Positions 51,472 through 51,577 of a DNA stretch of 64,000 bases are shown in pieces (positions within the stretch are counted from its first letter, which is position 1; every line of letters starts with the position of its first letter). The stretch is from Escherichia phage vB_EcoM_PHB05. Below the pieces are notes generated by a model. That model did not search any database, was not told where the DNA came from, and worked only from the letters and a program-made list of their open reading frames with translations. The stretch lies in sequence record NC_052652.1. One strand, given 5' to 3'. The translations under genes were made by a program, and so were the position numbers.

Positions 51472-51577
51472 GCCTAGTAGGGTATTTGGTAATTCCGAGG
51501 CCATCAAAGCCTGAAAAATATGTTAGACCGCTTTGTCTAACTAAATACGAAATATGGTTCGATTCCATAACTAGGCT
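51472..51577 (+). ncRNA. atypical 106-nt tRNA-like element
   Basis: Perfect 7-bp acceptor pairing GCCTAGT/ACTAGGC and canonical T-arm TATGG-TTCGATT-CCATA, but about 30 nt too long and no clean D or anticodon arm. Confidence 0.3.

Follow-up and report, generated by a model that had tools for sequence, protein, structure and literature searches.

In canonical tRNAs the variable region comprises 4-5 nt, with about 10-24 nt being usual for class II molecules; in the element described here it reaches 40 nt. The tRNA cluster of phage T4 contains two stable, non-standard RNAs of about 100-140 nt (species 1 and 2), and in the family treated here, by contrast, both the full cloverleaf and an anticodon are retained. 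In E. coli, UGA suppressors derived from glyT combine, like the element, a glycine-type acceptor end with an anticodon changed from UCC to UCA. What defines allo-tRNAs and the selC* tRNA-Cys is an acceptor/T branch of 8/4 or 9/3 together with longer anticodon stems, and a suppressor or regulator role has been proposed for them (Mukai et al., 2017, PMC5389517). The amino acid identity of such molecules can be compared with the sets compiled for E. coli, in which glycine is specified by U73, G1-C72, C2-G71, G3-C70, C35 and C36 (Giege and Eriani, 2023, PMC9976931, Table 1). The lysine set consists of A73, U34, U35 and U36 and the serine set of G73 and G2-C71, C2-G71 being an antideterminant for E. 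coli SerRS (PMC9976931).

The locus lies in a 64,000-nt stretch of the genome of Escherichia phage vB_EcoM_PHB05 (NC_052652.1), which is called the window below. Its tRNA region is 99% identical to that of Enterobacteria phage ECGD1 and of other phi92-like E. coli phages (Justusliebigvirus, Stephanstirmvirinae). ARAGORN detects 16 tRNAs in the cluster of the window (51277-54158), and the 106-nt element, which starts 2 nt 3' of the CCA of tRNA-Leu(UAA) (51384-51469) inside the phage tRNA operon, is not among them. The element is a real but oddly built tRNA gene with a full four-arm cloverleaf (Table 1). It belongs to a phage-specific, conserved and mostly unannotated family of elongated, structured, tRNA-shaped RNA genes, whose carriers are large enterobacterial phages. 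As its anticodon suggests, the element may decode the UGA stop codon as an amino acid.

Architecture of the element

Table 1. Coordinates of the elongated tRNA gene, its parts and the adjacent promoter-like sites in the window.
Feature	Position	Strand	Remarks
Promoter-like site	50943-50972	+	10/12 match
Elongated tRNA gene	51472-51577	+	106 nt without CCA, about 30 nt beyond normal tRNA length
Acceptor stem, 5' strand GCCUAGU	51472-51478	+	7/7 pairs with ACUAGGC
Linker AG	51479-51480	+	2 nt; A8 in place of usual U8, invariant (n=26 sequences)
D arm	51481-51496	+	6-bp stem GGUAUU/AAUUCC, 4-nt loop UGGU; 3/6 pairs covary
Anticodon arm	51497-51513	+	G, 4-bp stem AGGC/GCCU, 7-nt loop CAUCAAA, G; flanking G..G invariant
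Anticodon UCA	51504-51506	+	would read UGA; loop positions 3-5; A33 before (not U33), A37 A38 after
Variable region	51514-51552	+	after G 51513: linker AAAAAUAU, 7-bp hairpin, linker UAAAUACGAAA; 40 nt counting G 51513
Variable-region hairpin	51522-51541	+	GUUAGAC-CGCUUU-GUCUAAC, perfect 7 bp
T arm	51553-51569	+	UAUGG-UUCGAUU-CCAUA
Acceptor stem, 3' strand ACUAGGC	51570-51576	+
Discriminator U73	51577	+
UCA	51578-51580	+	at site of CCA in most relatives (CCC in KMB37-type variant)
Stronger promoter-like site	51611-51639		3' of the element; 11/12 matches

The initial annotation had pointed to a perfect 7-bp acceptor pairing (GCCTAGT/ACTAGGC), a textbook T arm (TATGG-TTCGATT-CCATA) and a core about 30 nt longer than in a normal tRNA. 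The acceptor pairing and a canonical T arm are present, and the length of 106 nt was verified. The same annotation saw no clean D or anticodon arm and described the core as non-tRNA. Both arms were nevertheless found (GGTATT-TGGT-AATTCC and AGGC-CATCAAA-GCCT), backed by compensatory changes in homologues, and the core consists of a tRNA-Sec-like D arm and a short anticodon arm, whose stem has four Watson-Crick pairs and a G.G. The loop suspected of bearing TCA does so, at positions 3-5 of its 7 nt. The reported hairpin TAGAC-CGCTTT-GTCTA exists, but its stem was underestimated at 5 bp and actually has 7 bp (GTTAGAC/GTCTAAC); it stands in a variable region that may be summarised as an A-rich linker, the 7-bp hairpin and an AAUAC linker. 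Among the interpretations then offered, a permuted tRNA and a processing scaffold are unsupported, the core being collinear with that of a normal tRNA. An unusually extended tRNA is the description that holds: a cloverleaf with four arms and a 40-nt variable region, in a member of a conserved phage family.

Detection and covariation

No call was made at 51472-51577 by ARAGORN run on the window or by Rfam at gathering thresholds, no RF00005 match was reported, and no tmRNA was found over the element with either tool. A tmRNA-like tag ORF in the variable region was considered and rejected, since the AUG...UAA seen in the window and in Hena1 is not conserved. In a permissive Rfam search, the only match from the tRNA clan was tRNA-Sec (29.4 bits, E 2.7e-4; gathering score 47), and this alignment already displays the 6-bp D stem, the loop UGGU and the anticodon loop CAUCAAA. 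Relatives of the rV5 type pass RF00005 at 33-35 bits, and the best relatives reach 39-43 bits with RF01852, under the gathering score of 47.

The fold was assessed by structure prediction and by covariance analysis. As a single sequence, the element gives a better fold than 197 of its 200 shuffles (z = -2.7), the other three folding equally well. The cloverleaf was tested on an alignment of 26 distinct family sequences with 21 pairs, i.e., 546 pair cells, 99.6% of which hold standard pairs; the sole unpaired cells are U12.U23 in two phi92-like sequences. Compensatory changes on both sides were found in 11/21 pairs, including the tertiary pair G19:C56, which changes to U:A. In the acceptor stem, 4/7 pairs are changed on both sides, with G1-C72 and C2-G71 conserved, and in the anticodon stem an A-U pair becomes G-C in 12 sequences. 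The observed covariation score was reached by none of 500 shuffles, and pairing fell to 33-52% when the 3' partners were slid by 1-3 columns. RNAalifold independently recovered the same four helices on the alignment of homologues, and the branch geometry acceptor/T is 7/5 in 26/26 sequences. Column 18, in the D loop, covaries with column 94 of the T loop, as G:C in 21 sequences and as U:A in 5; the D loop UGGC goes with UUCGAUU and UGUC with UUAGAUU. This covariation of the D-loop/T-loop contact argues for an L-shaped fold. An extra helix between the linkers of the variable region appeared in some single-sequence folds, is not conserved and was rejected.

Across the family the variable region measures 31-41 nt, with 7-11 unpaired nt on each side of the hairpin, and every member has a hairpin of free sequence between the conserved linkers G(A/U)AAA and AAUACAUAG; one subgroup conserves the hairpin loop GAACUAACAGUA over a covarying stem. 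A full covariance model of the family scores members at 94-121 bits, with one copy per genome, and ordinary tRNAs at no more than 31 bits. When the model was built without phi92-like sequences, from phages of other genera, the element still scored 80.6 bits (E 6.7e-18), the next match in the window 22.6 bits and ordinary tRNAs at most 23 bits. The possibility that a standard tRNA fold had been obscured by a sequencing indel was rejected, because the same sequence is present in many independent genomes: 26 records carry it at >=99% identity, and a length of 100-110 nt is kept across subfamilies.

The covariation also contradicts the view that the locus is no RNA gene at all, which is scarcely credible. 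The 42-codon ORF at 51462-51590 is listed among the ORFs of the window and annotated as a CDS in KMB37, and a terminator scan flags a hairpin with a T-run on the minus strand (51541-51522). The homologues, however, vary by indels of 1-2 nt and by base-paired changes, not codon-wise, the scan found 1 site against 1.0 expected by chance, and neither an ORF nor a terminator explains the acceptor, D and T arms.

Distribution of the family

A BLAST search with the element returned 33 records, 29 of which are phi92-like at >=98% identity; the remaining four, at about 70%, belong to Erwinia phages Hena1 (two records, one genome) and pEa_SNUABM_55 and to the N4-like Salmonella phage UTK0002. The Hena1 homologue is annotated as 'tRNA-TERM / tRNA-sup(tca)', and those of pEa_SNUABM_55 and UTK0002 are unannotated. 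Further lineages were gained from viral and metagenome contigs with two-anchor patterns, which replaced a loose 14-base scan of viral contigs whose 120 matches were mostly due to chance. An anticodon-independent pattern brought up the scaffold of the element with different anticodon loops. The extra matches of a pattern limited to the D arm were all false positives in coding sequence, and this pattern was discarded. BLAST with the loop variants placed the family throughout Vequintavirinae, in rV5 and about 130 relatives, Av-05, PVP-SE1, SSE121, GAP31 and 4MG as well as in KB57, Mydo, Ro1, DP, FENT2 and NDO71. Altogether, about 30 distinct relatives of 100-110 nt were obtained from rV5-, PVP-SE1-, GAP31-, KB57- and Hena1-like phages (Vequintavirinae), phi92-like phages and one N4-like phage. 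The gene is found once per genome, always within a tRNA cluster and 2-5 nt after another tRNA.

In bacteria, a pattern scan of one genome per species yielded no copy, its 24 matches being chance hits in ordinary tRNAs or coding sequence, and a BLAST search of 5,426 complete E. coli genomes was negative. Within the genomes searched, the element is therefore restricted to phages. The RefSeq records of rV5, PVP-SE1, GAP31, 4MG, KB57 and Mydo have no tRNA feature at the locus, and where a label exists elsewhere, the labels disagree (tRNA-OTHER, tRNA-???(atcc), tRNA-Lys, tRNA-TERM). The tRNA sets published in the rV5 and BME3 papers omit the gene, and a literature search of incomplete coverage found no description of this family.

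Several records deserve separate mention. The unannotated records MG065646-MG065677 ('Campylobacter phage' D1, C11, C7, A142 and others) contain an rV5-type element with 93-94% identity to that of Escherichia phage Av-05; with genomes of rV5-like length, these phages are perhaps rV5-like coliphages under a wrong label or present as contaminants. A degenerate copy occurs in the unverified record of Salmonella phage 21 (601-711; 15.8 bits with the family model), where the 3' half is recognisable by AAUACAUAG, the T arm, the acceptor strand and U-CCA, and other sequence stands in place of the 5' half. Ro1 (region 203-595) has an HNH endonuclease gene directly upstream of the element, and the element of K18PH07C1 (region 1-1142) is overlapped by an annotated HNH pseudogene, which suggests homing-endonuclease traffic in tRNA clusters of this type.

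State of the gene in phi92-like phages

CCA is encoded by all 17 other tRNA genes of the window cluster and, as U-CCA, by most relatives of the element, and the element itself ends in U-UCA and the KMB37-type variant in U-CCC. Members of the rV5 and Av-05 types are also devoid of CCA, though their neighbouring tRNAs carry it. In phage Paula a clean deletion of about 126 nt removes the element and leaves 'CCTA' of its 5' end (Paula 970-1000 versus window 51470-51600); hence such phages can do without it. In the searches, only 29 phi92-like records yielded the window-type sequence (33 matches in total), against 506 that matched the tRNA region.

The loss in Paula, this sparse distribution and the mutation of CCA in two ways in two phi92-like variants would all be expected of a decaying relic, i.e., of a family functional elsewhere whose phi92-like copy is under relaxed selection and has little or no activity. 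Such a relic would also account for U12.U23, the only D-stem mismatch in the family and confined to phi92-like phages, and for the linker of the window element, which reads AAUACGAAA in place of AAUACAUAG. Decay is nonetheless an unlikely explanation. Six pairs (acceptor 4-69 and 5-68, D stem 11-24 and 13-22, T stem 49-65 and 50-64) have changed on both sides in the phi92-like lineage and are still paired, all 7 bp of the variable-arm hairpin are intact, and distant relatives share the anticodon loop. The six retained pairs and the unchanged loop argue for long-term selection on the RNA.

Anticodon loop and identity elements

Within the family, the anticodon loop and the discriminator vary together. 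Members of the rV5 type have the loop UUUUUAA with anticodon UUU and A73, and those of the Av-05 type have UUUAUAA with UAU and U73 or C73, CCA being encoded in neither. The type of PVP-SE1, GAP31, KB57 and DP carries the loop CCAUCCAG, on a 4-bp stem (8-nt loop) or a 5-bp stem (6-nt loop), together with UCC and U73-CCA; its variants are CCAGCCAG (GCC, 4MG), CCCACCAG (ACC, NDO71), CCCUCCAG (UCC, Ro1) and CCCUCAAG (UCA, NINP13076). The loop CAUCAAA with UCA and U73-CCA is shared by Hena1, UTK0002, several metagenomic lineages and the window (there U-UCA), the window loop being identical to the loops of Hena1, UTK0002, L128-type, L164 and L169; L171 has AAUCAAG, also with UCA. The anticodon UCA arose at least twice, in NINP13076, three positions apart from its near-twin KE22, and in the Hena1/window type.

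G1-C72 is invariant and C2-G71 is found in 25/26 sequences. Members with UCC, GCC, ACC or UCA combine both pairs with U73 and are glycine-like, with U, G or A at position 34 and a constant C35, and UUU members have A73, as for lysine. The UCC/GCC/ACC relatives hold 5/6 of the glycine identity set; the window element has U73, G1-C72, C2-G71 and C35 and differs at C3-G70 and A36. This co-variation of anticodon and discriminator is what charging by GlyRS and LysRS would call for. The long arm notwithstanding, SerRS is disfavoured, because the serine set wants G73 and G2-C71 and C2-G71 is its antideterminant. U33, near-universal in ordinary tRNAs, gives way to A or C throughout the glycine/opal groups, and rV5 members have a fully canonical loop. 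A canonical tRNA-Gly(UCC) is already present in the window phage and likewise in the clusters with UCC members.

Glycine- and lysine-like identity sets joined to non-canonical loops, in RNAs redundant with canonical isoacceptors, would also suit an aminoacyl donor for a non-ribosomal reaction, charged but barred from decoding by its abnormal loop. In Staphylococcus, non-proteinogenic tRNA-Gly species are used in cell-wall synthesis, and by this analogy such a donor can be imagined, yet it seems very improbable here, no aminoacyl-transferase gene having been seen near the clusters examined.

Neighbourhood and UGA usage

The promoter-like site upstream of the cluster probably drives a single transcript of the small ORF 51003-51269, tRNA-Met, tRNA-Leu(UAA) and the element, as judged from their arrangement. 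The stronger site 3' of the element belongs to a second non-standard tRNA (51651-51732, +), which has an arginine-type loop CUUCUAA (UCU), encoded CCA, about 7 nt at the position of the D arm and a 20-nt insert after the anticodon arm. It scores 40 bits with the Rfam tRNA model (above gathering), was missed by ARAGORN and is kept in Paula and KMB37. Between tRNA-Met and tRNA-Ile, a weak tRNA-like sequence (53996-54076, +) with the loop CUCCAAA (CCA, Trp-type) reaches 22.9 bits with the Rfam tRNA model (below gathering) and 15-16.5 bits with the family models; it may be a degenerate tRNA. The phage tRNA-Ser(UGA) (51797-51886, +) has U73, compared with G73 in E. coli serine tRNAs. In the annotation of the close relative PaulScherrer, genes for polynucleotide kinase, RNA ligase and a phosphoesterase are found on the opposite strand some 7 kb upstream, and PRPP synthetase and nicotinamide phosphoribosyltransferase genes just upstream (PaulScherrer neighbourhood 5585-13066). 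The length and position of the 577-aa ORF 48797-50530 (+) of the window match the nicotinamide phosphoribosyltransferase gene annotated in relatives; there the other four genes are annotated too, no more than about 8 kb from the tRNA cluster, in what looks like a neighbourhood of NAD salvage and RNA repair.

The 95 ORFs predicted in the window end with TAA in 73 cases, TGA in 19 (20%) and TAG in 3. The distance from TGA to the next in-frame stop did not differ from that for TAA among these ORFs (p = 0.11), and none of the four TGA-split open stretches in the 64-kb window is a convincing read-through gene. At 2005 the extended frame overruns the next gene in another frame, 62329 lies opposite a long gene and 54049 opposite the tRNA cluster. 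The fourth consists of the adjacent small genes 10730-10903 and 10913-11200, which share a frame. This stretch (10730-11200, +; 57 + 95 codons, split by TGA plus two codons) is the sole site in the window where read-through would fuse plausible genes, and the shared frame is probably a coincidence. TGA being an ordinary stop with no read-through signal, the phage uses the standard code, and suppression would be weak or tolerated at most. A suppressor serving an alternative code would imply a stop codon that stands in-frame within genes and is depleted as a terminator; the 64 kb show no credible gene with an in-frame TGA, and TGA is in regular use as a terminator.

Discussion

The features described above are read, tentatively but as quite possible, as those of a chargeable tRNA that would act in the window phage as a weak opal suppressor of glycine lineage, encoded by an accessory gene, with cysteine as another possible amino acid. 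The element would be co-transcribed with tRNA-Met and tRNA-Leu, RNase P would free its 5' end, and the 3' end would be trimmed and provided with CCA by the host nucleotidyltransferase, an addition needed for charging because CCA is mutated to UCA in the window phage. Charging would most likely be performed by GlyRS, because the element would descend from UCC/GCC/ACC relatives and U73, G1-C72, C2-G71 and C35 are kept; CysRS is the alternative (U73, C35, A36). EF-Tu would deliver the charged RNA to the ribosome, where UCA would read UGA in competition with RF2, with an efficiency expected to be low because of A33 and the short anticodon stem. The gene would remain accessory, with no change of the genetic code. 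As far as sequence comparison can tell, a chargeable tRNA best fits the identity co-variation, the CCA encoded in most members and the 7/5 branch. The suppressor role is favoured by the loop UCAAA, which provides the context A36-A37-A38; compared with CUUCAAA, the Rfam consensus of tRNA-Sec, position 33 alone is different. Against it stand A33, the 4-bp stem, the missing CCA, the use of TGA as an ordinary stop, the Paula deletion, the presence of a canonical tRNA-Gly(UCC) and the existence of sister groups with an 8-nt loop or with a 5-bp stem and a 6-nt loop.

The main rival reading is a non-decoding tRNA mimic, an L-shaped and tRNA-processed RNA that would act as a decoy or inhibitor of a host tRNA-targeting enzyme (an anticodon nuclease or defence tRNase) or as a ligand of a phage protein. 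Such a mimic, although rather unlikely, explains the missing U33 in all UCC/GCC/ACC/UCA members, the loops of 6 or 8 nt, the redundancy of the UCC version with the tRNA-Gly(UCC) of the same clusters and the conserved linkers better than suppression does; the single-stranded G(A/U)AAA and AAUACAUAG and the subgroup loop GAACUAACAGUA are without counterpart in ordinary tRNAs. Genes for polynucleotide kinase, RNA ligase and NAD salvage near the tRNA cluster (in the PaulScherrer annotation) point in the same direction, and published work argues that phage tRNAs counter tRNA-cleaving defences (PMC10264068). A nuclease decoy, however, would have no need of the anticodon-discriminator co-variation or of the CCA encoded in most members, which are the expectation for aminoacylation; among known E. 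coli nucleases, none with specificity for a UCA or UCC loop was identified, and the loop of rV5 members is canonical. It is similarly doubtful, though conceivable, that the family forms a structural class of its own, made up of tRNA mimics exchanged among phage families and retuned at the anticodon loop, which would neutralise tRNA-targeting defences or serve as a phage-private adaptor. The traits of such a class would be the tRNA-Sec-like D arm, the variable region of 31-41 nt with conserved motifs and the absence of U33 in the glycine/opal type.

The rV5, PVP-SE1, phi92-like and related phages serve as models and as candidates for therapy, and their reference annotations and papers omit the gene; where it is annotated, the labels are inconsistent. 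A conserved tRNA of about 105 nt overlooked by standard finders represents a blind spot in tRNA annotation. Moreover, one scaffold combined with lysine, isoleucine, glycine or opal anticodons is a natural test of which tRNA architecture is tolerable in processing, charging and perhaps decoding, and, being naturally orthogonal-looking, it may serve genetic-code engineering. If the favoured reading is true, UGA suppression in a phage with the standard code bears on how stop-codon recoding starts; should the element be a mimic, it would be a further move in the tRNA-centred arms race of phages with bacterial defences.

Among known RNAs, a natural suppressor or a tRNA-Sec-like tRNA would come closest to the element in the way it works. 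The element shares with bacterial tRNA-Sec (RF01852) the anticodon UCA, the 6-bp D stem with the 4-nt loop UGGU, the lack of U8 and a long variable arm, and the anticodon loops are one position apart. It differs in having a 7/5 branch, U73, C2-G71 and A33, where tRNA-Sec has an 8/5 (13-bp) branch, G73 and G2-C71; moreover, its variable region is about twice as long and includes single-stranded linkers, and its relatives carry glycine, lysine or isoleucine anticodons. A true tRNA-Sec or allo-tRNA is ruled out by the 7/5 geometry, U73 and the sub-threshold scores. With allo-tRNAs and selC* tRNAs, the family has in common a D arm of the tRNA-Sec type, an extended variable arm, a variety of anticodons (opal among them) and, in selC* tRNA-Cys, U73, and some of those RNAs are also found in phage tRNA clusters (PMC5389517), but its 7/5 branch and shorter anticodon stem set it apart. 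Class II tRNAs (Ser, Leu, Tyr) are the next-best matches of the family model (22-31 bits) and share the cloverleaf and the variable-region hairpin, whereas the family has a longer variable region with unpaired flanks and a D arm of 6 bp with a 4-nt loop, and the element, with U73 and C2-G71, does not fit the Ser, Leu and Tyr identity sets. Suppressor tRNAs of recoded phages likewise have a stop-codon anticodon, but the window phage keeps TGA as an ordinary stop, and unlike suppressors derived from tRNA-Gly the element is not built on a tRNA-Gly scaffold. Canonical tRNA has a 5-bp anticodon stem, a 7-nt loop, U33 and a purine at position 37; the element has 4 bp and a G.G, A33 and the expected purine, A37, and shares with canonical tRNA the 7-bp acceptor, the 5-bp T stem with the 7-nt loop UUCGAUU and a D arm making the G19:C56 contact between D loop and T loop.
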